Both the position numbers and the translations under genes were made by a program. From IMG/VR virus record IMGVR_UViG_3300024262_004725: a stretch of 64,000 nt of DNA, one strand, 5' to 3'. The notes below the pieces were generated by a model that saw only the letters and a list, made by a program, of their open reading frames with translations, had not been told where the DNA came from and did not search any database. This DNA comes from an uncultured virus (IMG/VR IMGVR_UViG_3300024262_004725). Its lineage: Duplodnaviria; Heunggongvirae; Uroviricota; Caudoviricetes. This document shows, one piece after another, positions 680 through 62,885 of this stretch (position 1 is the stretch's first letter; each line of letters opens with the position of its first letter).

Positions 680-859
680 TAGTGAAATTTTTCACAATAG
701 CCTATTGTGAAATTTCGCACAATCCAAAAAATCCGCTTGTGAAATTTCGCACAATCTAATATTGTGAAAAATCCCACAATCCAAAAAATCGGTTTGTGAA
801 AAATCGCACAATCCAAACTTGTGAAATTTTGCACAATCCATTAGTGAAATGTATCACAA
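680..859. repeat. Array of 7 imperfect 18-bp palindromes (TTGTGAAAwwTnnCACAA)
   Basis: Copies start at 680, 705, 737, 762, 794, 819 and 842 (spacings 25, 32, 25, 32, 25, 23). Confidence 0.9.
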
Positions 860-1191
860 TCCAACTATTAGGAACTACGCTATATACTAATAGATAGAGT
901 AACTACTAAGCTATGTATGTAAGTGCATAGTAGGCTATTAGTATATAGGCACCCTAGGTACTCACTGTTATATACAGTACCCTATGCAGTGAGTGCCATA
1001 TGCACTGGGGTATGCACAGACATGGGCAGTGCCATAGGCGAAATTTTAACGTTTTTTGACATAGTTGAAAGTGTATTTAGTTAAATTAGTAGTTACATTA
1101 ATTATAACATCGAAAGTTCGAGGCCCTTGCAGTCCGGTCGACGTCGACATTACTAAAACACTACTGTTGATGTTGACAGGAACGTTGACTA

Positions 1192-6117: not shown

Positions 6118-6179
6118 TGTTATATCTTAAAGCGTGTCCACGTTGTCAAGGTGATGTAAAATATGAAAAAGATCCTTAA
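6117..6179 (+). pseudogene. Truncated CxxC zinc-ribbon microprotein
   Basis: MLYLKACPRCQGDVKYEKDP* has the same start as 10839-11036 but lacks the second CxxC. Confidence 0.45.
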
Positions 6180-9144: not shown

Positions 9145-9471
9145 ATGAAACAATTTTGTCCTGAATGTGGAGAATTTGGAAATTTATCTTTAAATTTATC
9201 TTTAAATTATGATTTTAAAATAATTAAAACAAATATTAAAGTACCAAAAGAAAAATTAACATCACAACAATTAAAAGTAGCAAGTTTAATGTGTTTTGGT
9301 TTAACTAATACTAAAATAAGTGAAATATTAGTAATAGATATTCGTACAGTAGAATTTCATATAAATAATATATATAAAACATATAATTTATTTAAAACTA
9401 ATACAATTAATCTTCGAGTTACTTTTATTTTAAATTATATACAAGAATTAGGATTAAAAATTCATGATTGA
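9145..9471 (+). CDS. LuxR-type HTH regulator with N-terminal CxxC
   Basis: LTSQQLKVASLMCFGLTNTKISEILVIDIRTVEFHINNIYK. Confidence 0.85.
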   Translation: MKQFCPECGEFGNLSLNLSLNYDFKIIKTNIKVPKEKLTSQQLKVASLMCFGLTNTKISEILVIDIRTVEFHINNIYKTYNLFKTNTINLRVTFILNYIQELGLKIHD

Positions 9472-9763
9472 AATAACTAGAGATTTAGTTAATAAATGTA
9501 TACATAATAATGTATTATCAGTAAGAGAAAATCAAGTTCTTAATCTATTAATTAATGGATATAATAATATTACTATTGCAGAAAAATTATATATCCAACC
9601 TAGAACTGTTGAACATCATATGGCTAGTATAGTTTCTAAATTTAATATACCATATGAAATGAATGCTAGAAGTTATATTATATCTACAACTTTACGTTTA
9701 CTTTTTGAAAGAGAGAAATTGAATAATTTAGAAAGTAGTATAAAAGAAGAGAGGGGTACTTGA
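9464..9763 (+). CDS. LuxR-type HTH regulator
   Basis: LSVRENQVLNLLINGYNNITIAEKLYIQPRTVEHHMASIVSK. Confidence 0.88.
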   Translation: MIEITRDLVNKCIHNNVLSVRENQVLNLLINGYNNITIAEKLYIQPRTVEHHMASIVSKFNIPYEMNARSYIISTTLRLLFEREKLNNLESSIKEERGT

Positions 9764-12762: not shown

Positions 12763-13581
12763 ATGACATATGAAAGTTTTGTATCTGAATTTCAAGTAGA
12801 TTATGATTCAAGATTAGAACTTGATTTAATTGATTTTTGTATTTATGGGCCTAATGGAATTGGAAAAACTCCAGTATGTGCAGGAGTTATTGATTATGAA
12901 GGAACTAATAAACCTGCATTTATTGATTTAGAAAGTGGAGCAGCTTCTGCAAAAAGAATGGGAATACCAGTAATTGATGTTCAAGCATATGCAGCAGCTA
13001 ATGATCTTTATTTAAAAAAACCAGCTAATAAAAATAAAATAGATATTTATAAAGCACTTCTTGCAATAATTGATAGATTAGAAAAGCAAAGAAAAAAATG
13101 TATTGAAGAAGATATTGAATTTCCTTTTAATGTAATTGTGCTTGATGGTTATACTAAATTAGCAGAAGTTACTATGGAATCTGTAATGGATTCTGATCCA
13201 AAAGCAAGAGAAGTTCCTGATATTCAACATTGGAATTATCTCTTACATAGAATTAGAAAAATAACAAATAGATTACGTCTATTTCCTACCCATCTAATTG
13301 CGACGGCAAACGAGTACACAAGGCAGGTGAGCGGTGTAGAGTTTACAGGACTTGATATAAATCCAAGAACTATGAATACTATTCTTAGTAACTTTGGATT
13401 AATCGGTCGTATGAAATTAGTTAATGGTGAACCCGTTTTAACTTTTAAACCTCTTTCTAGTTATATTTCGCGGGACCGTTTAAATTTAATGCCTAAGGAA
13501 ATGAAGAAACCTAGTATTAAAGAAATTTTTACTATGTATTTAGAAGAAAAAAACAAAGTAATTGGAGAAACTAAACAATGA
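12763..13581 (+). CDS. AAA_24/Sak4-like recombination ATPase
   Basis: Walker A YGPNGIGKT, IDLESG, Walker B VIVLDG; lies next to an SSB-like gene. Confidence 0.8.
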   Translation: MTYESFVSEFQVDYDSRLELDLIDFCIYGPNGIGKTPVCAGVIDYEGTNKPAFIDLESGAASAKRMGIPVIDVQAYAAANDLYLKKPANKNKIDIYKALLAIIDRLEKQRKKCIEEDIEFPFNVIVLDGYTKLAEVTMESVMDSDPKAREVPDIQHWNYLLHRIRKITNRLRLFPTHLIATANEYTRQVSGVEFTGLDINPRTMNTILSNFGLIGRMKLVNGEPVLTFKPLSSYISRDRLNLMPKEMKKPSIKEIFTMYLEEKNKVIGETKQ

Positions 13582-14021
13582 GTCCAGTAGTACGAGCAAA
13601 TCTTGGTGAGAAGTCTTCATTTGAGATGCTGCCAACAGGTATTGTAAGAGTTGCAGTTGTTAAGTATGACATCGGTAATTCAAAGAATGGTGATGAGATG
13701 CACACTGTTCGTTTTCAGATTAGTGAGCCAGAATCAGCAAAGGGACGAATTCTTTTTGGTAACTATGTGCAACTTCCGCAGTCAATGTGGAGTTGGGAAC
13801 AACTTCTTAATGCATGTGGTGTAGAAACTCCTGCAAAAGATGATATGGCTGCACGTGAAGCATTTGAGTTTGATACTGATGAAGTTAATGGTTCTGAGTT
13901 GAAGTTGCGAATTGGTCCTGGTAATGATGATCGTTACACGAGTAACAACATTAATGAGCACATGCCTCTTGACGATCCACGCGAAGTAGGTTTTGAAGAG
14001 ACTGAAGAAGCCGCAGCTTAA
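13578..14021 (+). CDS. DUF669-like single-stranded DNA-binding protein
   Basis: FEMLPTG...SKNGDEM...GRILF...LLNACG with an acidic tail; this is the usual position after Sak4. Confidence 0.75.
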   Translation: MSPVVRANLGEKSSFEMLPTGIVRVAVVKYDIGNSKNGDEMHTVRFQISEPESAKGRILFGNYVQLPQSMWSWEQLLNACGVETPAKDDMAAREAFEFDTDEVNGSELKLRIGPGNDDRYTSNNINEHMPLDDPREVGFEETEEAAA

Positions 14022-21852: not shown

Positions 21853-22356
21853 ATGCCAATTGTAAAAGCTTCTTTCCCTGCAACGTTTAATGTATATACT
21901 GATGGATCTTCTTTAGGTAATCCAGGGCCTTCAGGTGGAGCTGCGATATTAGTAGTAAAAGAAAAATTTGTTGCTGTAAGATGTAAACATATAGAAGAAG
22001 CTACAAATTCAGTAGCAGAATTAACTGCAGCATATTTAGGTTTACAACTTATAAATGAATTTCCTTTAAAAGCAAAATTTAATCTTATAACTGATAGTCA
22101 GTATGTTATTGGAGTTCTTTATAAAAAACAAGTTGCAAGAGCTAATATACTATTAGTTGAAGAAATTAGAGATTTTATATCTATGTTAAAAGATAAAAAA
22201 ATTCTAATTCATTTTGATTGGGTTAAAGGACATAAAATAGGTACTCAACATCCTATTCATAGATTTAATCAAGTAGTAGATAAACTTGCAAGACAAGCTG
22301 CTGAAAGCAACGATAATCCTCAAATAATTGATATGGGAAATGGAATAGATATATAA
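21853..22356 (+). CDS. rnhA: Ribonuclease HI
   Basis: YTDGSSLGNPG, TNSVAEL, TDSQYV, WVKGH, NQVVDKLA. Confidence 0.93.
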   Translation: MPIVKASFPATFNVYTDGSSLGNPGPSGGAAILVVKEKFVAVRCKHIEEATNSVAELTAAYLGLQLINEFPLKAKFNLITDSQYVIGVLYKKQVARANILLVEEIRDFISMLKDKKILIHFDWVKGHKIGTQHPIHRFNQVVDKLARQAAESNDNPQIIDMGNGIDI

Positions 22357-22860: not shown

Positions 22861-25551
22861 TTGCCCCTTAAATTAAAAGAAAACTTTACTGCTAAAACTC
22901 CTTATGCAGATTGTAATACTTGTCCTTTAAGAGACAATACATTTGTACCTCCTGATGTAACAGAAATAAGAACTAAAGATGGATATTCTACATGTAATGT
23001 TGCATGGGTAGGAAATTATCCAGATGAAGAAGAAGCAAAAGCTGGACAAGTATTTATTGGAGAAGCAGGTAAATTACTTAAGCAGGTTACTCAAGGATTA
23101 AAAAAATTAATTCCTTGGATGGATAAACAGATTTATTTAAATTCTGTTCTCTGTTCTCCACATTCAAATGAAGAAGTAAATGAAGATGCTAGAAATCATT
23201 GTTATAAAGGAGTATGGCATCTTCTTGAAACTTATAAACCAGAACTTATTATTGGAATGGGACCTGAAGGATTAAAAACTACAGATGTATATACAGGAAC
23301 TATTTTAGATAAGCATGGTAGTTATACTAAAGTAAATAGACGATCGGTATTAGATCATGGTAAGAAATTTATCTCGAATATTATTAGTTCTGTTCATCCT
23401 GCCTATGTTGTACGTCCTACTGGAACAAGTTTTTATCAGGAATATGTTGATGGACTTTTTCATGGGATTTCCAATTATTTAAAACCAATTCCAGAACCTG
23501 AATATGAAATTCTTAATACAGTTGAACAAATTACTGCATTAGAAGAATTAATACCAGATAATGTTCCTGTTGCTCTTGATATTGAAACAGCTAATTTGAA
23601 ATTATATGATGAAATTATTTGTATTCAAGTTAGTTCTAAAGCTTTAAATAATAATAAATCTTATATTATTGAATGGCCCGCTAATGTAAAAATGGATTAT
23701 AATTTCTCTACTTTAAAATGGGATATTATATTTCCTGCTGAGACATATGAAGAAACTAAAATATATTATGAAAGAATAAAATCTTTTTTAGAAAATCCTA
23801 AATTTAGATTTATACTTCAAAACGCTAATTTTGATAAACCCCAATTAGGTAGTTTTGGAATTGATATAGAAGTAGAATATGATACTCTTCTTGAAAGTCA
23901 TATTACAAATGAAAATGCAAGAAGTCATTCATTAAAATATCAAGCTAGATTACGTTTAGGATGGCCTGATTGGGATACTCCTATTATGGAGTTTATTAAT
24001 AGGTATGCTAAATCTAAAAAAGAAAAAGCTGTATTTAGATGGACACAAATACCACGTAAAGAATTATATAAATATGCTGCATTTGATTCTCCTGGAACAG
24101 AAGAACTTCATCATATATTTTATGATAAAGAAATGGATGAAGGAGATAAAAATGTTCATGATGTATTTTCTATTCCAGCTCTTAATATGTTCTCAGATAT
24201 TAGGACTAGAGGATTAAGAATAGATGCAGGAAAAACTATTGGATTAGTTGATGACACTAAAAAACTTGCAGCTAAAATATTTGAAGAACGTATAGATCAA
24301 ATAGCATATGATAATGGTTTTGAAACTTTTAATCCTAATAGTCCAAAACAAGTAGCTGAATTATTATATGATAAACTAGAAATATCTCTTCCTATTGAAA
24401 GAGGAAAGGAAGTAAGATCTACTAACAAAAAATTATTTGAACAACTTCCTCAATTAGATATTATTCAAGCTATTAAAGAATATAGAGAAGCTACACATGA
24501 TATTGATGCATATTATTTAAGTATAGCAGGAGATGCTTATGGTGATATTTGTATTCATCCACATTTTGATCTTACTTTACGCACAGGTAGAATTGCTACC
24601 TCCAATCCTGCGATACTTAATGTAAAGAAAAGTTCAAGAGTAGGGGAGATGTTTATCCCTTACTATCCAAATGATTATTGGATGTTAAAAATTGACCAAG
24701 CACAATTTGAATTAAGATTTTTTGCTGGAATAACAGGTGCAGAATCTATGATTGATGCCTTTATGAAAGGTGTTGATGTACATGGTTATTTCGGAGTATT
24801 AATGGATCCTAATTATGAAAAAGCTTATGCATTAAATCCAGATGTAAGAACACGAATTAAGAATGTAGTATTTGGTACTTTATTTAATGCTGGAGATTAT
24901 CAAAATGCAATTTCTGCTACTCCATCAGCTTTACAAGCATTAAGACTTTCAGATCTTTCTTATTATGAACAAGTAGTAACAGATAAGCAAGCTTATGAAT
25001 TTTGGTTCCAAAGTTTAATTCAGGAAATGAAGAAAGTTAGAGAAGCTTTTAATGAACTTTGTCCTGAAGCTGATGAATTTAAAGATACTATTAAAAATGA
25101 AATCTTTGATAAAGGATATATAGAAACTGTTACTGGACGTAAACGACATTGTCCTTTAGTTCCTAATGATAATAAAGCTTTCAAACACTTATTAAATCAA
25201 ATGATTAACTCGCCAGTACAGGGACCTGCGAGTGAAATTAATGTAGCAGCTGCAGTGGATGTGCATAATCATTATGAAAATTCTATGGACGCTTTTGTGG
25301 ATACAACATATCATGATGCAATCTTTGTTGAAGCGGATAAAAACAATTGGGAAGAAGTCTTAACAACAACTACGGAGTATATGACAAGTGCTCCAGCAAG
25401 ATACTTAGGAGATAAATATCCAATATTTAAAGAGGTGCCTTTTGCAGTAGAAGCAGAGATTGGAACTAATTGGAAAAATACAACCAAAGTTTCAAAAATT
25501 GATAACAAATGGGTAGTAGAAAATCCAGATAAGATTGGAATGAAAGTATAA
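22861..25551 (+). CDS. polA: Family A DNA polymerase with N-terminal family-4 UDG-like domain and 3'-5' exonuclease
   Basis: UDG4: CNTCPL, FIGEAG, HPAY. Exonuclease: LDIET, NANFD, YAAFD. Polymerase: TGRI, DQAQFELR, KNVVFG, NSPVQG, HDAI. Confidence 0.92.
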   Translation: MPLKLKENFTAKTPYADCNTCPLRDNTFVPPDVTEIRTKDGYSTCNVAWVGNYPDEEEAKAGQVFIGEAGKLLKQVTQGLKKLIPWMDKQIYLNSVLCSPHSNEEVNEDARNHCYKGVWHLLETYKPELIIGMGPEGLKTTDVYTGTILDKHGSYTKVNRRSVLDHGKKFISNIISSVHPAYVVRPTGTSFYQEYVDGLFHGISNYLKPIPEPEYEILNTVEQITALEELIPDNVPVALDIETANLKLYDEIICIQVSSKALNNNKSYIIEWPANVKMDYNFSTLKWDIIFPAETYEETKIYYERIKSFLENPKFRFILQNANFDKPQLGSFGIDIEVEYDTLLESHITNENARSHSLKYQARLRLGWPDWDTPIMEFINRYAKSKKEKAVFRWTQIPRKELYKYAAFDSPGTEELHHIFYDKEMDEGDKNVHDVFSIPALNMFSDIRTRGLRIDAGKTIGLVDDTKKLAAKIFEERIDQIAYDNGFETFNPNSPKQVAELLYDKLEISLPIERGKEVRSTNKKLFEQLPQLDIIQAIKEYREATHDIDAYYLSIAGDAYGDICIHPHFDLTLRTGRIATSNPAILNVKKSSRVGEMFIPYYPNDYWMLKIDQAQFELRFFAGITGAESMIDAFMKGVDVHGYFGVLMDPNYEKAYALNPDVRTRIKNVVFGTLFNAGDYQNAISATPSALQALRLSDLSYYEQVVTDKQAYEFWFQSLIQEMKKVREAFNELCPEADEFKDTIKNEIFDKGYIETVTGRKRHCPLVPNDNKAFKHLLNQMINSPVQGPASEINVAAAVDVHNHYENSMDAFVDTTYHDAIFVEADKNNWEEVLTTTTEYMTSAPARYLGDKYPIFKEVPFAVEAEIGTNWKNTTKVSKIDNKWVVENPDKIGMKV

Positions 25552-26549: not shown

Positions 26550-26756
26550 ATGGCAATGGTACCTTTACTTATCGGTGGCCTTATCGCGCTAGTTGTAGGT
26601 GTTTCTCTCGTTCCGACGATTGTGACTACCGTCAACAACTTGGACACTGGTACAACTCCACAGACTGTGCTTGACTTGGTTGATCTCTTACCGATCATCT
26701 TCGTTGCGTCACTTATCGTGGCCGCAGTGTCTCTGTTCTTCGCACGACGTTCTTAA
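26550..26756 (+). CDS. Putative major capsid protein, spindle-shaped virus (SSV1 VP1-like) two-helix hairpin
   Basis: Two hydrophobic helices flank PTIVTTVNNLDTGTTPQ, with a basic C-terminus. Perfect AAGGAGG RBS (26532-26538), own promoter and terminator, distinct codon usage. Confidence 0.8.
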   Translation: MAMVPLLIGGLIALVVGVSLVPTIVTTVNNLDTGTTPQTVLDLVDLLPIIFVASLIVAAVSLFFARRS

Positions 26757-29931: not shown

Positions 29932-30831
29932 ATGACAGAAGAAATTAAATTACCCTCAAATCTGCCTAGGAATCCTAATCCCCCAGAAGAAAGACCTACA
30001 ACATCACCTATAACTAGTGAGCCAACTACAGTAGGTGGTGGTGGACCAAATCCTATTGAAGAACAAAAACAATTCTTTAGAGATCCTCCTTCAGTAGGTG
30101 GTGGTGGACCAAATCCTATTGAAGAACAAAAACAATTCTTTAGAGATCCTCCTTCAGTAGGTGGTGGTGGACCAAATCCTATTGAAGAACAAAAACAATT
30201 CTTTAGAGATCCTCCTTCAGTAGGTGGTGGTGGACCAAATCCTATTGAAGAACAAAAACAATTCTTTAGAGATCCTCCTACACCTGATGGCGGGCCTTTA
30301 GAATTAAAGACATCAGATAGAAAACCTTTAGATAATAAATTTGTACCTATTCAATTAGATGCAGAAGAAATTCTGCAAATGAATAGTAATCCATTAGAAA
30401 CAACGGGTATTCCAAATGCTTTAGAAATTAATTCTGCAGATCTTCCTCAATTAGATCAAGATATGAATACTGATTTTGATGAAGAAGCAGATAGAGTTTT
30501 TAGATCTGCTAGAACTGAAGACTTTGAAGCATCTTTAACTTCTTTAGATGATAAAGCTCCAAAAGCAGATAAAAAATCTCCAATAATTAATATTGATGTT
30601 AGTGCTTTAACTGGAGATACAACTAAATTAGCAAAAACAGTTACTGAAAGTAAGAAATTAGAACGTTTTATAAAGAAAGCATCTCTCCCTTCTTTAGTAG
30701 ATGCAAAAAATAGATTAGATCAACTATTAGAATCTAATACTGATGAAAAAGATGATATAAGACATTACAAACTTAATTTGTTAAATGCATTAGCAGATGA
30801 AATTTCATCTAGAAGCCTGAGTGAATTTTAA
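29932..30831 (+). CDS. Pro/Gly-rich repeat protein with C-terminal helical domain
   Basis: Four copies of VGGGGPNPIEEQKQFFRDPP(S/T). Confidence 0.75.
   Translation: MTEEIKLPSNLPRNPNPPEERPTTSPITSEPTTVGGGGPNPIEEQKQFFRDPPSVGGGGPNPIEEQKQFFRDPPSVGGGGPNPIEEQKQFFRDPPSVGGGGPNPIEEQKQFFRDPPTPDGGPLELKTSDRKPLDNKFVPIQLDAEEILQMNSNPLETTGIPNALEINSADLPQLDQDMNTDFDEEADRVFRSARTEDFEASLTSLDDKAPKADKKSPIINIDVSALTGDTTKLAKTVTESKKLERFIKKASLPSLVDAKNRLDQLLESNTDEKDDIRHYKLNLLNALADEISSRSLSEF
30029..30279 (+). repeat. Perfect 63-bp coding tandem repeat, 4 copies
   Basis: Units start at 30029, 30092, 30155 and 30218. Confidence 0.95.
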
Positions 30832-46360: not shown

Positions 46361-47044
46361 ATGATAATATCAATTGAAGGTAAAATGGGTTCAGGAAAAA
46401 CCCTTACCACTACAATGCTAGGTTTTGATGCATTTAAGCAAAATCGAAAAGTACTTGCAAATTATAAATTAAATTTTCCTTATGAAGTATTTGGACCTGA
46501 AGATTTTTATAGAATTAATGACCAAGATTTAGAACTTAATAATTGTATGGTACTTGCTGATGAAGGTTATTTAATGATGGACTCTAGAAATAGTATGTCT
46601 ATTATGAATAGATTAGTAAACTACTGGTCAGTACAAACAAGAAAAAGAAATGTAGATTTAGTAATTGCTACACATGAATTTACTAGATTAGATAAAAGGA
46701 TTAGATCTGCAGTTGATTTAAGAATTGGTTGTAGATATGAATTAAGAGGTTCAGAAATTGCATATAAGCAAAATAAAGCTGGACATCTTATTATGGATCC
46801 AGAAACAGGGAACCCTAAAAAAGCTAGAGATAAATATGGAAATCCAATATTTATTAAAAAGGCTTTAGATGAAATGGGTAAAGTAGTTACGTTAAGAGGA
46901 GAACCAAAATTAAGATTAATGTTTAGAAATATGATGAAAGGTACTGTTAATCTTCAATATATTAACCCAATTCCTTTCATGAAATATTATGATACAGAAG
47001 AAATTATTTCAATTCCTGAAGGAGTAATGAACAGAGGTTTATAA
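46361..47044 (+). CDS. Zot-like P-loop ATPase (virion assembly/extrusion)
   Basis: Walker A GKMGSGKT, VLANY, Walker B VLADEG, DSR, QTRK and LDKRIR. Confidence 0.82.
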   Translation: MIISIEGKMGSGKTLTTTMLGFDAFKQNRKVLANYKLNFPYEVFGPEDFYRINDQDLELNNCMVLADEGYLMMDSRNSMSIMNRLVNYWSVQTRKRNVDLVIATHEFTRLDKRIRSAVDLRIGCRYELRGSEIAYKQNKAGHLIMDPETGNPKKARDKYGNPIFIKKALDEMGKVVTLRGEPKLRLMFRNMMKGTVNLQYINPIPFMKYYDTEEIISIPEGVMNRGL

Positions 47045-47271: not shown

Positions 47272-47315
47272 GGGGTCATAAAACACTTGAAGTGTTGAGA
47301 GTTTTCTGCTATAAT
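47272..47315 (+). promoter_or_regulatory. Sigma70-type promoter with GGGGTCA element
   Basis: GGGGTCA, TTGAAG (47287-47292), 17-nt spacer, extended -10 TG-C-TATAAT (TATAAT at 47310-47315). Confidence 0.8.
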
Positions 47316-47356
47316 TAGTAAGAACACTTATATATACTTCTAAAATAATTAAAAAT

Positions 47357-48286
47357 ATGAAATACTTTGAAAAGATCATAAAGCATAGACTTGAAAAAGA
47401 ATCAGGTAAGTTTTTAGTAGCTCAAAGAAATAAAAGAGAGCATTACTTTTTACTTACACGTAATCTTTTAAAATCAGATGATACAAGATTTAAAGATGTA
47501 TGGGAAGATTCAGAAGAAGAAATTAACAAATTAATATTTGTTAAAGCTAGATTAAAATTATTTGATGAATTAAATCCACATAAAGCAGCTCAAGGTATTC
47601 CTAATAATGAAACTCTTAAATTAATAGAATTACTAGAAGAAATACCTAAAGACGTTATAAAAAGTGAGCCAATTCTTTTTAATAGTTTATATTCTTTATA
47701 TTGTGCAATATATGAGAAAGCAAATTTAGCTAGAAAAAGATTAGGATCTACTAGAGGTACAACTTTTATTAATCAAAATCCTAATTTAATTGATTTTGCA
47801 ATTAAAAATGGAGATAGATCAATACAATATACAGGTTGTGTTCCTGATGAGCCAAAAAATGAAGAACAACCTAATGTAAAAAAACATAAAGAAGAAAACT
47901 ATTTATTAGTTTATGCTCCTCAATTTGTAATTGAATCTCTTTTTTATAGAGCATTAGCTGCAGGAAAACAAAGAGCCTCTAAACAAAAAGTTCATGATCA
48001 AAGATTATTAAGAGCATCTCAACAAAGAGCAATAAATTGGAAAATAGCAACTGACTTTTTAGATAAGCACTCAGAAATAGAACAAGAATTTACTAAATTT
48101 GCATTAGGATTAAGAGGGCCTTTTACTTTCAAACCGCCTAAAGAAATTACACACAAGCAATTACTTAATGTTTTATATACAAGAGTTAACACAAATATAA
48201 AGAAAGTTAAAAATGGCAAGTCGATCAACCTCAGTAAGGTACCCACAACGTCTTCAGAGGTTACCGAGAGGGCAAACGCAAGCTGA
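47357..48286 (+). CDS. Hypothetical basic protein
   Basis: 309-aa ORF, first gene after the promoter. Confidence 0.6.
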   Translation: MKYFEKIIKHRLEKESGKFLVAQRNKREHYFLLTRNLLKSDDTRFKDVWEDSEEEINKLIFVKARLKLFDELNPHKAAQGIPNNETLKLIELLEEIPKDVIKSEPILFNSLYSLYCAIYEKANLARKRLGSTRGTTFINQNPNLIDFAIKNGDRSIQYTGCVPDEPKNEEQPNVKKHKEENYLLVYAPQFVIESLFYRALAAGKQRASKQKVHDQRLLRASQQRAINWKIATDFLDKHSEIEQEFTKFALGLRGPFTFKPPKEITHKQLLNVLYTRVNTNIKKVKNGKSINLSKVPTTSSEVTERANAS

Positions 48287-48752
48287 ACAAAGAAGAGCAC
48301 AATCATATGAAGCATGGATAAGAAGAGGATTTTTACCACAAGAGGCATGGTATTTAGCTAATCATGGATTTCGTGTAACAAGTAAAAATCTTAGAACTCA
48401 TACTTTTGTTAGAAGACTAACATCAGTAAGAAAAAAGCTAATAACAAAATGGGTAGATTTTGGTTTTTCAAGTAGACAAATATTTAATTTTCTTTATGAC
48501 TTAATTGAAAATCCTTTGGTGGGAGACAATTTAGAAGATCAATTAAGATCTGTAGGTAGTGATCCAGATGAACCTATAAATGAAGCATTAAAACCTTATA
48601 GCGCACTCTTAAGATCTAAAAAAGATGTAGAAGATCATTTTGAATTTTCACTTGGTTTAACAGTTCAAACATTTAGTAAAGATATGTACGATTTATCTAT
48701 TGAGGACGCAAAGTATTGGGAAGAACTAGCAACGAAATTATTAAGGAAATAG
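48213..48752 (+). CDS. Hypothetical protein upstream of PolB (terminal-protein candidate)
   Basis: Arg-rich N-terminus, helical, overlaps the PolB start. Function is inferred from position only. Confidence 0.45.
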   Translation: MASRSTSVRYPQRLQRLPRGQTQAEQRRAQSYEAWIRRGFLPQEAWYLANHGFRVTSKNLRTHTFVRRLTSVRKKLITKWVDFGFSSRQIFNFLYDLIENPLVGDNLEDQLRSVGSDPDEPINEALKPYSALLRSKKDVEDHFEFSLGLTVQTFSKDMYDLSIEDAKYWEELATKLLRK

Positions 48753-50521
48753 TTCCAGATACTGATTTATTTGTAGAAGATTTCTACGAATCCCCACCTT
48801 TTAATAATATTAATTTTGATAGAACAAATAAAAGATATAAGTTTAAGAAAAGAACAGCAGAAAATGTTGAAGGATTAATAGTAAAAACAGATAGAGATGG
48901 AAATTTAATATACATTGAAACTAAAATGGGTAAAATTAGTAATTTAGATATATTCTTAGTATATATTTTAGATAGACCTGATACCCTTTTTGTTACTTTC
49001 TACCCTTATGAACTCGATATTATATTGAAAAAATTTGGAGAACGAGTTTGTTCAAGATTAATTTATAGAGGACAAGCTACAGATTATGATAGAGGTGTTA
49101 CCATGTGGTATGCACCTAATAAAAATATTACTATACAAAGAATGCGAAGAGTTGTAAGAATTCAATCAATAAAAGATTGGTTTAAAAACTTAACTCTTGA
49201 AGATGCTTTAACAGATAACGATATAAAAGATCAAGGGGTTACAGGTTTAACAATATTAGCAAATGATCTTAATAAAGAATGTATGCTAGTATTAGGATCT
49301 AAAAATGGAGATTTATCTGCACCAACTACATTAACAAATTCAATATTGGAAAATGCAAATTACAGACCTGATTTTAATAAAATTCCAATGGAAGCAATTG
49401 AATTAGCATATACAAGTTTTCATGCCCCTTGGATTGAAATGTTTAGAATGGGTCATTTTGAAGAAATTCATGATTATGATTTAAATTCAGCATATCCAAC
49501 AGAAGTTGCAGATTTAATTTCAATAGATACTGGAGAATGGGTTGAATCAGATACCTTTCAAGCAGGTGCTTATTATGGATTTTGCTATGCAGTAATTCAA
49601 ATATATCCTACATATATTTCACCTATTTTAATGAGATCTGAAGGTAAACTATTTTCAACTGAAGGTACTTGGGTAGGAACAATAACAAAAGATGAAATTG
49701 ATTTTATTCAAAGACATGAATTAGGTAATGTTGTTGTATTAAATGGTTGGTGGTATTTTCCATCTGCTTATGATAGACCATTCAAGAAAGAAGTTACTAG
49801 ATTATTAAAGCTTAGAAGTTGGGCAAAACTTAAAGGATATAATCTTTTAGAGTATGCAATTAAAACTTCAACAGCAAGATTAGCAGGTAAATTTTTACAG
49901 AAGTCTATTAATTTAGATGATTTACAAACTTATAATGCAGGAAGACATTTTAATCCAATCTATGCAACTATAGTAATGACTAGAGTTAAATTATCATTAG
50001 CTGAACAACTATTCAGAGATAAAGAAAAAATACTAGCTATTGTTATTGATGGAGCTTTATTAGATGGAAAATCAACAGTATCAACATCTAAAGATCCTGG
50101 AGATTTAAAATTAAGTGAAAAAGGTGATGGAGTAATATTTTCGCCTTTTACAACTTTCTTAACAGAAAATAGAAATCCATTTTTAGTGAAAGATATTATA
50201 CAAAAAGATCCCATGAAAACTTGGTATCCATTACCTTCATTTGGGCCAGACAGATTAAGGTTATGTCAAGCTATATTAGATAATAAATTTGAATGGACAG
50301 GTCGAATAGTTGAATCAGAAGCTATAGTGGAGGTAGGAAATACAAACGATAGATTCTGGGAAGATAAACCTCAATACGGTTTGGACTTATTATTAAAAAA
50401 ATATTCTAGTTTTCCACATATGATTGAACATTTTAGTTATACATATGGTGTAGCAGATCTTACAAAACAAATCAGAGAAGATATGTTAAAAGAAATTAAT
50501 CCACAGGAAGTAACAATATGA
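48716..50521 (+). CDS. polB: Divergent family B DNA polymerase, protein-primed type
   Basis: Motif A YDLNSAYP; motif B-like IKTSTARLAGKF; FNPIYATIVMTRVK; motif C-like IVIDG; insert containing GTWVG after motif A. Confidence 0.72.
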   Translation: MGRTSNEIIKEIVPDTDLFVEDFYESPPFNNINFDRTNKRYKFKKRTAENVEGLIVKTDRDGNLIYIETKMGKISNLDIFLVYILDRPDTLFVTFYPYELDIILKKFGERVCSRLIYRGQATDYDRGVTMWYAPNKNITIQRMRRVVRIQSIKDWFKNLTLEDALTDNDIKDQGVTGLTILANDLNKECMLVLGSKNGDLSAPTTLTNSILENANYRPDFNKIPMEAIELAYTSFHAPWIEMFRMGHFEEIHDYDLNSAYPTEVADLISIDTGEWVESDTFQAGAYYGFCYAVIQIYPTYISPILMRSEGKLFSTEGTWVGTITKDEIDFIQRHELGNVVVLNGWWYFPSAYDRPFKKEVTRLLKLRSWAKLKGYNLLEYAIKTSTARLAGKFLQKSINLDDLQTYNAGRHFNPIYATIVMTRVKLSLAEQLFRDKEKILAIVIDGALLDGKSTVSTSKDPGDLKLSEKGDGVIFSPFTTFLTENRNPFLVKDIIQKDPMKTWYPLPSFGPDRLRLCQAILDNKFEWTGRIVESEAIVEVGNTNDRFWEDKPQYGLDLLLKKYSSFPHMIEHFSYTYGVADLTKQIREDMLKEINPQEVTI

Positions 50522-55055: not shown

Positions 55056-56858
55056 ATGACAAAAATTCTAAATTATAAATATTCTCCATACATTTTAGCA
55101 ATAGTGATCTTCTTCTGGTACTTACCTAATATAACTCCTGGTTATACTTGGGTAAGTGCTGGAGTAGATCATTTTGATTTTATATTTGCAGCAAGATTTC
55201 ATTTAGTACCACATTCTACTGGATTTCCTGCATATATGATACCTGCTAATTTAGTATTAATGGCATCACCTAATACTCATATTGCATGGACAATGGCAAT
55301 TACATTATCTATGATTCCTATGGTAATTACAGGTGTACTAGTACATTTATCAGTTAAAAAACTAATTGAAAATTGGGGCTCTTCATTAAACAAAGAATTT
55401 GAAACTACTCCAATTGACAAAACATTTCAACTTATTGATTACAAAATATGGACACCTTATGTAGCACAGCTAATTACTTACGGCGCAGTATTATTAATCG
55501 CACAAACATTCATAGTAGAAGTATATCTTTTTTCTATTATGATTGCGATGACAGCAATCACTTTTCATATATACGGAAAACACAATTGGGCATCAGTTTT
55601 TATAGGACTTGCATTTGCTTCGCACGGACTAACTTGGACAATGATGGGATTATTATTACTCATCAATTGGAAGACGTATATATCTAAATGGTGGATTCTT
55701 TCAATATTTGCAATAACACCTTATGCATATTTACCAATTGCAATGTCAATGACAGAATTTGGCGAAGAAAATACATTAAGAAATAATCAAATATCTGAAT
55801 ATTATAGATTTTTTAAATTTGGTTCTTCAAGTTTTTGGTGGGGAACATTACCAATATGGAAAGTACCTGAACGCATATGGGATTCACTCATCTTAATTTC
55901 GGTAACCCTAGGACTAGGAAGTCTCTCTTTAATTCTATTTATAAAACACGATATGAAAAAATATTGGTGGCTAATTCTGATAATAGCCCCAACACTATAT
56001 TACTGGTTCGGAACTGCAGTGAACATCGTTCATGTACACTTTGCATTAGCAGTACCTGTAATAATAATTCTAGCAAGCCTAGGATTAAAATACAGCACAA
56101 TTCATCCAAAGTATTACGCATTAGTAGCCCTAGCTATAATTTTAACAATCCCATTTTATTGGGATCTAGGGAGAACTTTAGATAAAAATCAAGCATCACA
56201 ATCCTATTATGATTTCTTTGATACATTAGAAAATGATGATCATGTCATTATTAATGTAGCAATAACTACAGTAGAAAAAGAAAATGAAACAGTAACAGCA
56301 TTAACAGATGGAGTAGCTATTTGGTGGGGTACTTTATTATATAACAGATTAAATAATAGAAAAATTACACCAATTTCACCTAATAAATATTTAGATGTAA
56401 ATAATAGTTTTGATCCAGCAAGAAACGAAGGAAGAAAACAAACATCATTAAATTATCAAAATAGTTTAATTCAGTATGGATTAAATCCAGTTGATGCTTT
56501 ATTATTAAAAGAACAAGAAGGAACTGGATGGTATGTAGAACTCAATGGAAAAGAGATTAATATACCAGATAACATCTACGATCCTTGTGATCCATCTTGT
56601 ATAGATCCAGAAAGAAATATTTTTCAAATTCAACAATGGTGGTTAATAGACAGAATTTTCCTTGCTAATCCTAATCAAACAATTCATTTAACAGAAAATA
56701 TAGGAAGAGAAGAAAAAGATATTATAGATAGGATATATACACGTGACTTATTACCTACAAACATTGCAATTGCATTTGAACAAATTTACAATGAAGCAGG
56801 GATTAGCATTACTACTAGGGGTAATACTAGGAACAACTTTTATAACATCGACAGTTAG
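55056..56858 (+). CDS. DUF2723/TMEM260-like GT-C glycosyltransferase
   Basis: GVDHFDF...VPHSTGFPAY (compare the HPPGYP motif), IVEVY, multiple TM helices. Confidence 0.72.
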   Translation: MTKILNYKYSPYILAIVIFFWYLPNITPGYTWVSAGVDHFDFIFAARFHLVPHSTGFPAYMIPANLVLMASPNTHIAWTMAITLSMIPMVITGVLVHLSVKKLIENWGSSLNKEFETTPIDKTFQLIDYKIWTPYVAQLITYGAVLLIAQTFIVEVYLFSIMIAMTAITFHIYGKHNWASVFIGLAFASHGLTWTMMGLLLLINWKTYISKWWILSIFAITPYAYLPIAMSMTEFGEENTLRNNQISEYYRFFKFGSSSFWWGTLPIWKVPERIWDSLILISVTLGLGSLSLILFIKHDMKKYWWLILIIAPTLYYWFGTAVNIVHVHFALAVPVIIILASLGLKYSTIHPKYYALVALAIILTIPFYWDLGRTLDKNQASQSYYDFFDTLENDDHVIINVAITTVEKENETVTALTDGVAIWWGTLLYNRLNNRKITPISPNKYLDVNNSFDPARNEGRKQTSLNYQNSLIQYGLNPVDALLLKEQEGTGWYVELNGKEINIPDNIYDPCDPSCIDPERNIFQIQQWWLIDRIFLANPNQTIHLTENIGREEKDIIDRIYTRDLLPTNIAIAFEQIYNEAGISITTRGNTRNNFYNIDS

Positions 56859-57969
56859 CTCAGTTACTTTTGACGGATTTTCAGGTAGTAATGTAATTTC
56901 TTATTATATAGGATGGAGAATTCATACTGCAGAAATATTAATATTACCAATAATTTTTTATTTGTTAATAATAAAGCCTAAAATTTCAGATTTCAAACAA
57001 ATAAATATAATAATATTCTTTGGTTTATATTTTAGTATACTAATTTCTATATTTTTTTCACAAAATAGTTCAAATTCAATACTCCATATTACTAGATTTC
57101 TTTTATATATGTATTTTGGTATGTATATTGTTAAGTTAATAAATATAAAATGGGTAGCTTGGGGTTTATTTTCTTTTACTCATTTTGCAATTATCTGGGG
57201 AACATTAGAATTTAACATACATAATACATTATTAAATGGCCCATTAGGTAATCCAGCAATAATGGCAGGATTAATAATTGTAAGTAGTGTATTTTTATAT
57301 GAAGTTTATAATAAAAATTATTTATTATTAACTTATATTTCTTTTGTTGGATTAACAGGAAGTAGAACAGGAATATTAACTGCATTAATTATACTAACTA
57401 TTGCAGCTATTATAGATTTTAAAGAATATAAAGGAAAAACAGTAAAAAAGTATTTAGCTGATATATTACTTTTAAGCTGTCTTACTTTTATAGCAATCAC
57501 TCAAACAACAACAGGGCCTAATAGATTTGATGTAGTAGCAGATTTTATACAACAAGAACGTACATTAGAACAATTTAGTAGCCATAGATCAGAAGATATT
57601 AAAGACTCATGGAAAGTAATAAAAGAGAACTTCCCTCTAGGGGTAGGCTTCCACAACATAGGATTAACACAAGAAAACATTCCTCACAACATTCCAATAA
57701 TTCTATTAACAGAACTTGGAATTTTAGCAGTGATTTTCTTAATGCTATATTTGGTACTATTATTATTATCACGCTCATTATTATTATTAGCTATGGGATT
57801 GATAGGATTAGGTGATTACTACTTATATCAAGGTACTTGGGCAGTATTTGTTTTTACATCTATTATAATTGGAATACACATAGGACAACTTAATGAAGAA
57901 TCTGTTAAGAGATTACTGGCAACATGGAAGCGCAGTACTAATATTAATTTTTATTTCAATAAACTTTGA
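56743..57969 (+). CDS. O-antigen ligase/polymerase-like (Wzy_C) membrane protein
   Basis: GPLGNPAIMAG, LTGSRTG, PLGVGFHN, PHNIPIILLTELG. Confidence 0.8.
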   Translation: MTYYLQTLQLHLNKFTMKQGLALLLGVILGTTFITSTVSSVTFDGFSGSNVISYYIGWRIHTAEILILPIIFYLLIIKPKISDFKQINIIIFFGLYFSILISIFFSQNSSNSILHITRFLLYMYFGMYIVKLINIKWVAWGLFSFTHFAIIWGTLEFNIHNTLLNGPLGNPAIMAGLIIVSSVFLYEVYNKNYLLLTYISFVGLTGSRTGILTALIILTIAAIIDFKEYKGKTVKKYLADILLLSCLTFIAITQTTTGPNRFDVVADFIQQERTLEQFSSHRSEDIKDSWKVIKENFPLGVGFHNIGLTQENIPHNIPIILLTELGILAVIFLMLYLVLLLLSRSLLLLAMGLIGLGDYYLYQGTWAVFVFTSIIIGIHIGQLNEESVKRLLATWKRSTNINFYFNKL

Positions 57970-58525
57970 ATTTGCAAGAGATTATGTATCAGGAAGATTA
58001 GAATATAAATGGTTATTTGCAGAATTATCTAATAAAGATGTAAAACTCTTTACAATCTTAATAACAATTGGAGCGGGTGCAGGTTTTTTGGTAAACGCAA
58101 TTATTCAAAATATAAGAACTAAAACAAAAGAAGCTACTAATGTTGCCCTAGAAGAACGTAATCGTTTTATTAAATTTGGTATAGTTGGATTAATGGGAGT
58201 GGGTTGGAAAACATTACTTCTTTGGCAAGGAGTCGAAAAATATGGAATTTCAGAATATATTGTTATTATTCCCATCTTCTTTATTATCTTTTTTCATAAT
58301 TATATACTTAATACGATCTGGAGTTTTAGAGGACTCACTACTACTGAAAATAGTCTTTTTAAGTATTTGGGTATTAACATCTTTTCTGGGTTGGTATATT
58401 TCTCCTGTTATTACTCATTTTTACTTCTTCATACTCATTATATTTTTGCCTCATTACTCGGTGTTGGAGCAGCAGCGTTTATAAATTTTGCAGGTAGTAG
58501 ATTAGGTGTTTGGAAAACAGTTTAA
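57893..58525 (+). CDS. GtrA-family protein
   Basis: RFIKFGIVG...HNYILNTIWSF...INFAGSRLGVW. Confidence 0.8.
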   Translation: MKNLLRDYWQHGSAVLILIFISINFEFARDYVSGRLEYKWLFAELSNKDVKLFTILITIGAGAGFLVNAIIQNIRTKTKEATNVALEERNRFIKFGIVGLMGVGWKTLLLWQGVEKYGISEYIVIIPIFFIIFFHNYILNTIWSFRGLTTTENSLFKYLGINIFSGLVYFSCYYSFLLLHTHYIFASLLGVGAAAFINFAGSRLGVWKTV

Positions 58526-58540
58526 CTAAAGGAATTTAAT

Positions 58541-58813
58541 ATGCCAAGTACTAAACACGCTATATTAAAAGCAGTATCAGAATATCCTTTTAGAGAAGGA
58601 ATAGATGTAAATAGTTTATATAGTGATGCAAAAGAATTAAAACCAGAATTAGAAATTAGAGATTTTGATAGAACATTAATTCATCTAGTTAAAAATAATT
58701 TTTTAGATGCAGATAACATAAAAATGGACACCGATAATGTTGATATAGGAATACCTGCAAGAATTAAAAGAGGATTCTTTATCCTTACTATGAAAGGTGA
58801 TTTAGAAATATAA
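58541..58813 (+). CDS. Winged-helix-like small protein
   Basis: ILKAV...FDRTLIHLVKNNFL...FILTMKG. Confidence 0.5.
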   Translation: MPSTKHAILKAVSEYPFREGIDVNSLYSDAKELKPELEIRDFDRTLIHLVKNNFLDADNIKMDTDNVDIGIPARIKRGFFILTMKGDLEI

Positions 58814-59122
58814 TGTCAGGATTAATTGCAACTTTTAGAACAGAAACTGGAAATGTACTTGTAATTAAAGTACAACAAGCAGCTAGAGAAATACAAAGTG
58901 AATTTTCAGGAAATCCTCAAGTTTCATTAGAACGCGATGATGAAAATGATTTACAATTAATAGTATATAATATGAAATTTTCAGATGTTGAAAAAGTACA
59001 TCAAAGATTTACAGGTAAAGCTGGAATAAAAAATATAGAAATATTAGATACAATTAAAGTAATGGACAGAGGACTAACAGAAATTTAAAAATGTTTTATT
59101 CTCTATTTAATCTAAATAAAGA

Positions 59123-59167
59123 GGGGTCAAAAAAGGCTGGACAAAACACAACAATTAATGATATAAT
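59123..59167 (+). promoter_or_regulatory. Sigma70-type promoter with GGGGTCA element
   Basis: GGGGTCA, TGGACA (59138-59143), 18-nt spacer, extended -10 TG-A-TATAAT (TATAAT at 59162-59167). Confidence 0.75.
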
Positions 59168-60721
59168 TAACTTACTACCGCTAATAATACCTATAACATT
59201 AATTTTACTTATTTTAGGTATAATAAAACCAGATAGAAGTAATATAGATTTAAGAAAAGGATAATAATATGGCTACTAGAATAGATAAAAAGCAATATAA
59301 AAATGCAAAAGAAGATAGCCCCTCAGTTATTATTGCATTTAGTTCTAACCAAAAATTATCAAAATATGATTTAGCAGATTTAGCTTACCAATTAAAATTT
59401 CACATACCCAATAATGAAGCTATAAGTATACTAAGAGAATTAAAAAAGAAAAGAAGTAAAGAAGAAATAGTAGCAATTAAAGCTAATTTTTTAAAGTCAT
59501 TAGATTATAACTTACAATCTTCAGATATAAAGCATATAAAGAATTTACGAAAAGTAATTTAAGAAAAGGATAATAATATGGTTATGGAAGATCTACCAAT
59601 ACCTGAAAATGAAGAAAGACGTAAAGCTGTACGTTCTATATCAAACAGACATTCAGGTCTTATATTTAAATTAAAAGGAGATCAATTTTCTGAAGCTAAA
59701 AAAATTTTACAAATACTTCGTAATGATATAAGAGCAGATAATCCAGGAATAAAAACAGAATTTGATATTGATGATAGAGGAAATACAACTGTTGCTGTTT
59801 TAGATATTAGACAACAAGATGCAAGAAAACTTTTGCAAAAAGTAAAAGATAATAATGTTGGTTTTGATCACGACATACTCGAATTTAGATAGGAACTATT
59901 ATGAGTGTAGTAGATAGACATTTAGAAAATTTAAAAGATACAGGACATAAAACATTTGATGTTAAATTTTCTGTAAGATCTGGACAAGATTTAGTTCAAT
60001 TAGATGAAGCAGCACGTAGTTCACAAACCTTAATGGTTGAACGTGCAGGATCAAATCAAATTAGAATAGTAGGTATTTCTGATGAATTCGATTTAATTCA
60101 AGGAATTCCAGGCACTACATTAGTTGAGATGTAACAATGAGTAGAATTATTGTTCAGATTCCGAATACTGCTAACCCTACTATTACTAGAAATTTAGAAT
60201 TTTCAATTGAAAGAGAACAATTACAAGGTAAGTCTGTAAATATTACTAATATTATTAATCAAAATAATAATATAATTTATTTTATAGATACAGAAGAAAG
60301 TGCAGATTATACCTTCACATTAAATAGAAAAATTGAAAATCAAATACGAGGAATTGGAAAAACTAATTTAGATGTTAATTATACAGAAACAGAAGTAAAT
60401 GAAGAATTAATCAGACATGATAATGCAATACAAAAAATGAGGTTAAGAGATGAAAAATCTAGTCCTAGTGAAAGATTAAAAAGAGAAAAAAATAGACTAC
60501 GTGGGCACATCTTTAGACTGCAAGATAATAAAGCTCGCGCAAAAAGAATATTTAGAATGACAGGAGAAGAACAACATAAAAATGAAATGGAAAAAATAGA
60601 AAAAAATATTGAAAGATTAGAAAAACGTAGATCAGAATTAACATTAAATGGAATAGAAAGTAAAACAAACGTTAATTTATCTGATGATGATATAAATAGT
60701 TTATTAAATTAAAGGTTTAAA

Positions 60722-61651
60722 ATGATAAAAACAATTGCAGTTATCGGGTCTAGTGGATATATAGCATCAGCTCTTTGCCCTAGACTTGAACAATATGGTT
60801 TTAAAGTAATTCAAATTGAAAGTATTCAATTCGCAAATCAGCATACAACATATGTTAATAATTTATTAGATTCAAATACAAATACTTTATTTGAAATACT
60901 TAGTGAAGCTGATTTAGTTATTTATGCAGCAGCAATAAATGGACAACCTGCAACAGAAAAAGAACCTGAAATTGCAGTTTGGTTAAATGGTAATTTACCT
61001 TCTAAAATTTCAGAAAACTTCTCTACTCTTTATTTAGGAGCAGAAAGTTCATATGGAGATGTTAAGCCTAAAGATCATAAATTAGGTATTCAAGAAACTG
61101 ATAAACCTAATGCAAAAGTTGCATATGCAGTATCTAAATTATATGGAGAAGAATGTGTAATTCTTAATAAAGGTACGGTTCTTAGATTAGCTACAGTATT
61201 TGGACCATCTTCTAATATTAGAACAGAAAATTTAATTCATGGATTAGCTGTAGAACTTTTACAAGAAAATAAATTAGAAATTTATCAACCAGATACTTTT
61301 AGAAATATATTATACATTGAAGACTTACTTCAAGTACTTATAAACTTAATATCAACTTTTAATAAAACAGATCAAGGACAAATATATAATATTGCAACTA
61401 GAGCTACAACTAAAAGAACTATAGTCGAAACCTTTTTAGATTTAATTTACTTTGAAAAAGGTAGAGATGAATATTTAAAAATAAAATTTGTAGATAAAAA
61501 AGATATTGAAAATAGACAATTTATACTAGCAACAAACAAAATAAAACAAAGATTACCTAATATTAAAATTCAAACAGAAATGAAAAATTTTATACAGGAA
61601 TTAAATTTCACTTTAAACGCTTTAAAATTAGAAGGAAAGCATCTACAATAA
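60722..61651 (+). CDS. NAD-dependent epimerase/dehydratase (extended SDR)
   Basis: GSSGYIA, YAVSK, LRLATVFG. Confidence 0.88.
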   Translation: MIKTIAVIGSSGYIASALCPRLEQYGFKVIQIESIQFANQHTTYVNNLLDSNTNTLFEILSEADLVIYAAAINGQPATEKEPEIAVWLNGNLPSKISENFSTLYLGAESSYGDVKPKDHKLGIQETDKPNAKVAYAVSKLYGEECVILNKGTVLRLATVFGPSSNIRTENLIHGLAVELLQENKLEIYQPDTFRNILYIEDLLQVLINLISTFNKTDQGQIYNIATRATTKRTIVETFLDLIYFEKGRDEYLKIKFVDKKDIENRQFILATNKIKQRLPNIKIQTEMKNFIQELNFTLNALKLEGKHLQ

Positions 61652-61652
61652 A

Positions 61653-62885
61653 ATGACAATTGCAAAACCTTTCATCCCAGTAGCAAATCCTGTTTTTGAT
61701 GAAGACGAAAAAACATTTTTATTAGAATGTATAGAAACTGGATGGATTTCATCTAAAGGACATTTTGTAAAAGATTTTGAAGAAAAATTTGCAGCGACAG
61801 TAGATACAAAATTTGCATTAGCAACATCTTCAGGCACAACAGCATTATCTGCCGCATTAATTGGATTAGATATTCGACCTGGAGATAAAGTAATTATACC
61901 TAATTACACTTTCCATGCTACTGCAACAGCTATTATATTTGCAGGAGCTATTCCAATTGTTGTAGATGTAGATCCTTCTAGTTGGGCAATTAATGCTTTT
62001 AAAATTCAAGATCTTATTGAACGTCAAAAGTCAATAGAAAAATCCAAAATAAAAGCTATTATGCCAGTTGCAATTAGTGGATTCCCTTGGGATTTACAAG
62101 CAATAGAATTTCTAGCTAAAACTTATAATTTAAAAATTATAGGTGATAATTGTCAAGCTCTTGGCACTTTAATGCAAGATAAATTTAGTCAAATATCTTT
62201 AGCCAAAGCTTGTGATGCAGCTGCATATTCTTTCTTTGCAAACAAAATTATTACCACCGGAGAAGGTGGAATAATGACTACTAGCAATAAAGAAACATAC
62301 AAAAGAGCTAAAGCATTTATAAATCAAGGTATTTTTGAAGAAGATTCAAATCTTTTTATTGCAAAAATACTTGGATTCAATGCTAGAATGACAAATTTAC
62401 AAGCTGCTATTGGATTTGCCCAATTAGATAAATTAGAACCTTTATTAGAGCAAAAGCAAATAGTATCTGCTTGGTATGAAAAATATTTAACATCTGCTAC
62501 AATTATTCAAAATAGAGAGAATTCTGATCTAAATATTCCTGCAATGTTTACTCAAAGTGAACATGAGCAATTAGGGGGCTCTTCTATAAGAATATCTCGT
62601 TGGATGTTTAGATTAGCTTTCTCAGATATAATTTCTATACAAGATATTAATAAAACAAGAACTGCATTAAGAGAACAAGGATATGAAACTAAACCTCTAT
62701 ATCCACCAATATCTCAACAACCTTTTATTAAAGAGTTAGTAAAAGAAGGAAGAGTAATTTTAGATAGAGATTTAAGTTTCTCAGAATCTCTTAAAGGTTT
62801 TTATTTACCTACACATGGAGAAATCACAGAAAAACAAGTAGAAGAAATGTCTAGCATTATTAAGAAACATCTTCATTTTTCATGA
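61653..62885 (+). CDS. DegT/DnrJ/EryC1/StrS sugar aminotransferase (perosamine synthase-like)
   Basis: GWISSKG, SSGTTAL, SFFANKIITTGEGG, GFNARMTNLQAAIG. Confidence 0.92.
   Translation: MTIAKPFIPVANPVFDEDEKTFLLECIETGWISSKGHFVKDFEEKFAATVDTKFALATSSGTTALSAALIGLDIRPGDKVIIPNYTFHATATAIIFAGAIPIVVDVDPSSWAINAFKIQDLIERQKSIEKSKIKAIMPVAISGFPWDLQAIEFLAKTYNLKIIGDNCQALGTLMQDKFSQISLAKACDAAAYSFFANKIITTGEGGIMTTSNKETYKRAKAFINQGIFEEDSNLFIAKILGFNARMTNLQAAIGFAQLDKLEPLLEQKQIVSAWYEKYLTSATIIQNRENSDLNIPAMFTQSEHEQLGGSSIRISRWMFRLAFSDIISIQDINKTRTALREQGYETKPLYPPISQQPFIKELVKEGRVILDRDLSFSESLKGFYLPTHGEITEKQVEEMSSIIKKHLHFS

Follow-up and report, generated by a model that had tools for sequence, protein, structure and literature searches.

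Protein-primed viruses typically have genomes smaller than 50 kb, and one enzyme both primes and elongates, as described in PMC11348598. In phi29, the TPR1 region is the main contact with the terminal protein (TP), and Asp458 is one of the two catalytic carboxylates of the polymerase (PMC4974454). The Streptomyces enzyme Tap is described as making a 13-nt TP primer, which is extended inefficiently by Klenow polymerase in vitro (PMC4513846). We analysed a 64,000-nt stretch of DNA from an uncultured virus of the Caudoviricetes (IMG/VR record IMGVR_UViG_3300024262_004725; hereafter the window). It encodes a family B DNA polymerase of the protein-primed type (pPolB) with a dismantled exonuclease and, elsewhere, an intact family A DNA polymerase (PolA). 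We put at about even the chance that this pPolB loads a TP and synthesises no more than a short primer, and that PolA copies the genome.

The window polymerase shares with the pPolBs of phi29 and His1 the palm, TPR1, the TPR2 hairpin, the fingers, the thumb and the catalytic Asp pair; also shared are a small gene directly upstream and a capsid protein similar to gp21 of His1 (Halspiviridae). Unlike those enzymes, it has a dismantled exonuclease, has lost the Asn and Tyr of motif B, and reads HAPW in place of YxGG. Genomes of this kind are 50-90 kb long, with a second, intact PolA and bacterial-type regulators. The proposed logic, in which one enzyme charges the TP and makes a short primer for another polymerase to extend, is that of Streptomyces Tap/Tpg as given in PMC4513846, but here priming would fall to a reduced pPolB, and the virus itself encodes both polymerases. 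The pPolBs of mavirus, polinton-like viruses (PLVs) and transpovirons, as presented in PMC11161782, have likewise lost the exonuclease and the first motif C Asp and are predicted to be active. However, they are eukaryotic, keep motif B, have lost the exonuclease domain outright and are the only polymerase, whereas the window polymerase retains a dead exonuclease domain and is accompanied by PolA. The divPolA1 and divPolA2 enzymes of tailed phages are exonuclease-less second polymerases beside a regular one, but belong to family A, are described without a TP link and occur in HK97-type phages (PMC11348598). Finally, the IME1 viruses of Dehalococcoidia are bacterial viruses with the phrog_11172 (SSV1 VP1-like) capsid protein and the pI/Zot ATPase also seen here. 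They differ in being 21-28 kb long and integrated or circular, and the word "polymerase" does not occur in the main text of that report (bioRxiv 10.64898/2026.09.15.751708).

The polymerase open reading frame (ORF) has a TTG start with GAGGA just ahead. The first-pass annotation of this DNA had quoted an intact motif A and altered motifs B and C, and all three strings were located in this ORF: DYDLNSAYP at residues 253-261, KTSTARLAGKF at 383-393 and IVIDG at 442-446. It had also noted one surviving Asp in motif C. In the alignment with phi29 this is D445, the second and catalytic Asp of YxDTDS, while the first is replaced by V443. Together with D255 it corresponds to D458 and D249 of phi29, and the pair is invariant in all 131 rows of the family profile. 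When motif B is compared with Kx3NSxYG, K383 and G391 are retained and N, S and Y are changed to A, R and A. The exonuclease motifs are indeed unrecognisable, the ExoI and ExoII carboxylate columns of the phi29 alignment being occupied by I55, K57 and E99.

The window polymerase was not recognised in a Pfam scan, and no match was obtained among PDB sequences with either the single sequence or a 7-row profile. It is matched by PHROG 11768 (E 5.7e-7), and the 131-row family profile matches phi29 polymerase (E 1.3e-4). Its AlphaFold model (pLDDT 92.9, pTM 0.91) matches phi29 polymerase with a Z-score of 21.8 and a root mean square deviation of 3.7 A over 451 residues (model residues 47-539), compared with Z-scores of 11.3 or less for RNA-primed PolBs; the top BFVD match is His1 polymerase (TM 0.78). 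These three lines of evidence place the assignment to pPolBs beyond chance. In the model the ORF is a full phi29/His1-type protein-primed PolB fold, in which neither the palm nor the TPR insertions are lacking. The spacer between motifs A and B, which holds TPR1 and the fingers, is 128 aa long (134 in phi29) and beta-rich in the model. The TPR2 hairpin is present at 396-408 in the model but short, with a spacer of 22 aa vs 32 in phi29, 53 in His1 and a median of 19 in 30 canonical kin. Loss of TPR2 was considered as a mark of specialisation and discarded, as it is equally short in the canonical kin. NSV1 did not appear in the results of the phage sequence searches.

The enzyme is no one-off but a member of a large family. 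A profile search gave 2,737 clusters at E <=0.001, and the best 150 of the 2,737 were examined. With proteins shorter than 380 aa dropped and earlier hits included, 153 rows were obtained: 30 from the canonical clade and 123 with the window pattern (120 after removal of three near-duplicates). No fewer than 120 sequence clusters (50% identity) show the pattern, and most of these exonuclease-dead clusters are poorly recognised by Pfam. D255, G391 and D445 are retained in 120/120 exonuclease-dead rows; replacement of the catalytic palm aspartates, the sign of an inactivated PolB, was seen in none of them. All three exonuclease motifs are present in 0/115 exonuclease-dead rows and in 25/28 canonical ones (rows with a full N-terminus). 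In the window's own clade of 20 rows, motif B has Asn in 0/20 and Tyr in 4/20, and the K383 position holds Lys in 17/20 and Arg in 3/20. Nei-Gojobori dN/dS ranges from 0.05 to 0.13 in nine partly overlapping pairs of 82-96% identity, drawn from 43 sequences; more distant pairs were saturated, and the window gene itself had no close enough partner.

In a tree of polymerase domains from 61 selected rows, rooted on phi29, the 35 exonuclease-dead rows nest within His1-like intact enzymes. A single origin of the exonuclease-dead forms is permitted but weakly supported (55). By fold and descent this is a pPolB, yet it lacks two canonical features, motif B and the exonuclease. The annotation had called the polymerase degenerate, an ancestral replicase either specialised or repurposed. 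Tree and fold bear out descent from His1-like intact enzymes, and non-catalytic repurposing is disfavoured. With invariant catalytic residues and low dN/dS in relatives, the family is not decaying, and "degenerate" should read "specialised". The altered motif C is no sign of decay either, as the first Asp is lost in pPolBs that PMC11161782 treats as known active enzymes.

A PolA beside the pPolB, as the annotation had it, was found not only in the window but in all six related IMG/VR records with an exonuclease-dead polymerase (G001-G006; the G006 copy is cut by the contig end). It was absent from a seventh record tested, 16 kb long and with a canonical pPolB. Motifs A, B, C and ExoI are all intact in the window PolA, and the seven aligned PolAs keep the catalytic and ExoI residues (G001 has CDIETD at ExoI, where D and E are nonetheless preserved). 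Toprim primase, DnaB and Prim-Pol were not detected in 5/5 IMG/VR records, in 87 G005 ORFs of at least 85 aa (one long ORF part-scanned and one skipped), or in 49 window ORFs that include all those of at least 190 aa. The SNF2 helicase and the AAA_24/DUF669 pair, of which DUF669 is presumably a single-strand binding protein (SSB), are likely replication accessories.

Two ORFs precede the polymerase gene. The first, ORF309, overlaps the second, ORF179, by 74 nt, and ORF179 overlaps the polymerase by 37 nt, in agreement with the overlap annotated earlier. The annotation had also pointed to ORF179 as a possible TP, and its tie to the polymerase was upheld: members of its family lie upstream of the polymerase in 18/23 exonuclease-dead loci and in 0/24 exonuclease-intact ones. 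The 23 loci are those whose upstream sequence spans 500 bp or more (518-1,350 bp in the five without a member), and many of the 18 served to build the profile. One intact enzyme (L028) has a family member downstream. Family members share a GFxxxEA motif; E44 and R73 are invariant and Y98 is nearly so. The N-terminal half of ORF179 is basic (+15) and the C-terminal half acidic (-9). No family member was detected in G003-G006; in G004 and G005 the upstream slot is taken by an unrelated small ORF with a basic-then-acidic charge pattern like that of the phi29 TP. No match to the family was found in Pfam, no BFVD fold match at E <=0.001 was found for ORF179, and the Atlas searches gave no usable match for ORF179 or ORF309. 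A weak likeness over 28 columns (P 0.044) links the ORF179 family with upstream proteins of small canonical elements. The predicted complex of the polymerase with ORF179 scored 0.00, which is uninformative either way. ORF179 is a reasonable TP candidate.

Inspection of contig ends for inverted terminal repeats, suggested in the annotation, was rewarded in one relative and not in the other five, which are probably fragments. In G005 (78.8 kb) the final 116 bp repeat positions 1623-1738 without mismatch in inverted orientation, and genes run inward from both ends. This suggests a linear genome, about 80 kb long, in which a terminal inverted repeat (TIR) of about 1.7 kb has collapsed in the assembly. 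The first base of a 30,058-bp Logan contig coincides with base 1 of the window, and no flanking contig was found. A circular molecule would be expected to be joined across its ends, and the left end of the window is an assembly dead end. This contig and a 42,797-bp polymerase-bearing one together approximate the 73,046-bp record, with a tandem repeat (30,015-30,282) between them. The repeat unit is 63 nt, with 97% identity, and the array lies inside ORF 29932-30831. The hairpin at positions 4-63 is the probable left genome end. Folding of the window's initial 110 nt is stronger than that of any of 159 background segments, and the initial 110 nt of G001 (hairpin at L110 6-106) likewise exceed all of 121. 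These terminal hairpins could be telomere structures, terminators or the cause of the assembly stop; the G005 terminus has no strong hairpin.

The intact PolA, the failure to detect a primase and the probably linear ends make a hand-over from initiator to PolA the simplest reading. The features lost from the pPolB (proofreading and the motif B selectivity residues) serve long faithful synthesis and those kept serve priming, namely the catalytic Asp pair, the steric-gate Tyr, the dNTP-binding Lys and TPR1. On a linear genome, the pPolB would bind the TP (ORF179) through the retained TPR1 region, attach the first nucleotide and make a short primer at each end. The proofreading PolA, with the help of the SNF2 helicase and the SSB, would then copy the genome of about 70-80 kb. 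Freed from bulk synthesis, the pPolB would have lost proofreading and the selectivity residues of motif B while keeping catalysis. We infer from the above its catalytic activity, the identity of the TP, the hand-off and PolA as the elongating enzyme.

A number of observations weigh against this scheme. A TIR was found in only one of six relatives. The window itself may derive from the Logan run, in which case both are one data set, and the record continues for about 9 kb beyond the right end of the window. In G002 gene orientation diverges at a repeat array inside the contig, and IMG/VR lists G004 as a provirus; neither fits simple initiation at the ends. Outward-pointing terminal ORFs occur in the window and G001 but not in G005. 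Neither sequence nor fold searches linked ORF179 to known TPs, and its acidic C-terminal half is not general across its family. In a short clade of about 90 members no PolA was found in flanks of up to 10 kb, although such flanks also missed PolA in loci known to carry it. The host may supply a primase. The equivalents of N387 and Y390 are both lost in the window protein, which could cripple the enzyme. Finally, PMC11161782 predicts that in mavirus and PLVs exonuclease-less pPolBs work with a helicase as replicative enzymes.

The last point leads to one alternative, that the pPolB is still the main replicase, of low fidelity and helicase-assisted, and that the PolA-UDG protein serves repair, gap filling or proofreading in trans. 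All polymerase subdomains are present, TPR2 is no shorter than in canonical kin that are sole replicases (22 vs a median of 19), exonuclease-less pPolBs with helicases have been proposed as replicases in mavirus and PLVs (PMC11161782), and an SNF2 helicase occurs here too. However, motifs A and B stay conserved in those enzymes according to the same source. Loss of proofreading together with the motif B Asn and Tyr would be ill-suited to copying 50-90 kb, and PolA is intact and present in 6/6 records. We consider this explanation unlikely, though it deserves some weight.

Another possibility is end patching as in Streptomyces, in which replication by PolA or the host replisome starts from an internal origin, and the pPolB and TP fill the telomere gaps. 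The palindromic arrays at points of gene divergence (window 673-864; G002 22085-22311, i.e. L114 2085-2311, of different sequence) could be seen in this light, and the strongly folding ends of the window and G001 recall the palindromic telomeres described in PMC4513846. Moreover, one locus (L039) pairs an exonuclease-dead polymerase with a replisome organiser, two (L026, L031) have weak beta-clamp matches, and the window encodes an RNase H (Pfam). On the other hand, no viral primase or DnaB was detected in the records scanned, the window array is just about 700 bp from the end, and G005 has neither a strong terminal hairpin nor outward genes. As for Tap and Tpg homologs, Pfam gave no match for the ORF179 family or the polymerase, and no direct comparison with a Tpg profile was made. 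On balance end patching, too, is unlikely.

It is quite improbable that the enzyme is a translesion, repair or modified-base polymerase unconnected with genome ends. A loosened nucleotide pocket without proofreading would fit bypass synthesis, G005 carries the 7-deazaguanine genes QueC, FolE and QueD and a radical SAM enzyme, and second exonuclease-less PolAs of tailed phages have been suggested to be repair enzymes (PMC11348598). However, this leaves the linked small basic protein, the retention of TPR1 and the TIR unexplained, and Pfam detected no modification genes of the QueC/FolE/QueD type in the window. About as improbable is a catalytically dead scaffold or decaying relic that merely holds the TP or the DNA end: the badly altered motif B of the window clade, with its occasional Lys-to-Arg change, and the failure of Pfam to recognise the protein would agree with it, but both catalytic Asp persist in 120/120 rows despite decay of the exonuclease carboxylates, dN/dS is low, and active enzymes tolerate loss of the first motif C Asp (PMC11161782).

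Table 1. Coordinates of the main features in the window
Feature	Position	Strand	Remarks
Strong imperfect hairpin	4-63		First window bases, where the Logan assembly also begins
Short palindromic repeat array	673-864		At the switch in gene orientation; may be an origin or bind protein
SNF2 helicase	4558-6117		Pfam; also in G001, G002, G005
AAA_24 ATPase and DUF669 pair	12763-14021	+	Shared with relatives
Family A DNA polymerase, intact	22861-25551	+	UDG and 3'-5' exonuclease domains at the N-terminus; would elongate in the proposed scheme
Two-helix hydrophobic capsid protein, spindle/His1 type	26550-26756	+	68 aa; phrog_11172, E 4.5e-5
pI/Zot-like morphogenesis ATPase	46361-47044	+	Directly upstream of the ORF309-ORF179-polymerase unit
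Candidate sigma70-type promoter, extended -10	47287-47315	+	TTGAAG-17-TG-TATAAT
Orphan ORF309, first gene of putative operon	47357-48286	+	309 aa; no homolog found
Candidate terminal protein ORF179	48213-48752	+	179 aa, all-helical; linked family; function inferred
Exonuclease-dead pPolB gene	48716-50521	+	601 aa; motifs, PHROG, family profile, AlphaFold model, fold match

Of 46 hits within 10 kb, the candidate promoter upstream of ORF309 alone reaches 10/12. The annotation had given the gene its own promoter; the site is the best consensus match in the region, but the number of sites equals chance (46 vs an average of 51 in shuffles). Since shuffled sequence yields as many sites, the promoter is no more than plausible. 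A homolog search with ORF309 returned only itself, and two local profiles of its positional neighbours gave no match.

The capsid protein resembles gp21 of His1 (pairwise E 4e-7), which we take to be a capsid protein. Homologs occur in five of the six relatives (G002-G006), tandemly duplicated in G003, G005 and G006. The pI/Zot ATPase was found in four of the six, and a scan based on it revealed no additional complete genome. Nearly all window genes are on the plus strand, and among them Pfam recognised a class II ribonucleotide reductase and glycosylation genes. Two LuxR/GerE regulator genes are present in the window (9145-9763) and a sigma70 region 4 gene in G005. These regulator genes point to a bacterial rather than an archaeal host. 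The likeness of the capsid protein and ATPase to those of IME1 viruses, together with the LuxR genes, suggests a bacterial and possibly a Chloroflexota host. The window probably represents a large bacterial virus (about 73 kb) with an archaeal-type capsid protein.

A literature search, with most subscription journals and supplements outside its reach, gave no description of the exonuclease-dead polymerase family or of viruses combining pPolB with PolA. We tentatively suggest, at slightly less than an even chance, that these are undescribed large (50-90 kb) linear bacterial viruses with spindle-type capsids, in which phi29-style replication is divided: a widespread family of pPolBs without proofreading acts as dedicated protein primases with a new TP family, while elongation is left to a captured PolA or to the host replisome. 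If so, this would be how protein-primed genomes outgrow the small size usual for them, and a polymerase replacement frozen half-way and stabilised by selection. Parallels would be the split of primase and replicase in cells and, in Streptomyces, the logic of Tap and Pol I; the three-protein system could be reconstituted in vitro. With these carriers, spindle-type capsid proteins are also seen in large viruses, probably of bacteria.

Several polymerase genes of the family are interrupted. Two (P0102, P0125) contain intein-like insertions at the same position within motif A, with Pfam scores under the cut-off. In L031 (9578-12074) a NUMOD3 gene splits the polymerase after motif C, and the C-terminal piece has its own start; an Rfam search around the split gene in L031/L032 found no intron model. 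Five other representatives (P0062, P0121, P0131, P0134, P0166) terminate near the same position.

TIRs were flagged in three of 42 whole-contig loci, all 9-11 kb long and with intact enzymes. Four linear elements of 9-13 kb (L047, L048, L063, L089) have an intact pPolB, TIRs and their own conserved upstream protein family. The outward terminal ORFs of the window (202-495, minus strand) and G001 (L110 693-989, minus strand) are mutual best or near-best local matches, with E only about 0.3. Read inward, the L124 terminus (1-9) and the right end of L031 both give C(C)GGGGGT, which in these two cases may be a common terminal motif.

The replisome organiser of L039 is at 5544-6308, and the weak beta-clamp-like genes are at 4500-5027 in L026 and 4000-4566 in L031, hinting that short-clade elements use the host replisome in place of PolA. 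The QueC, radical SAM, FolE and QueD genes of G005 (L124 18339-19951, L125 146-823, L127 10381-10794) likely constitute a 7-deazaguanine DNA modification pathway, as far as gene similarity goes, and genes similar to this set were observed in G002 and L024. In the window, the region 55056-62885 contains a membrane- and sugar-modifying cluster with O-antigen ligase-like, GtrA, epimerase and DegT aminotransferase genes, which suggests glycosylation of the virion or cell surface.

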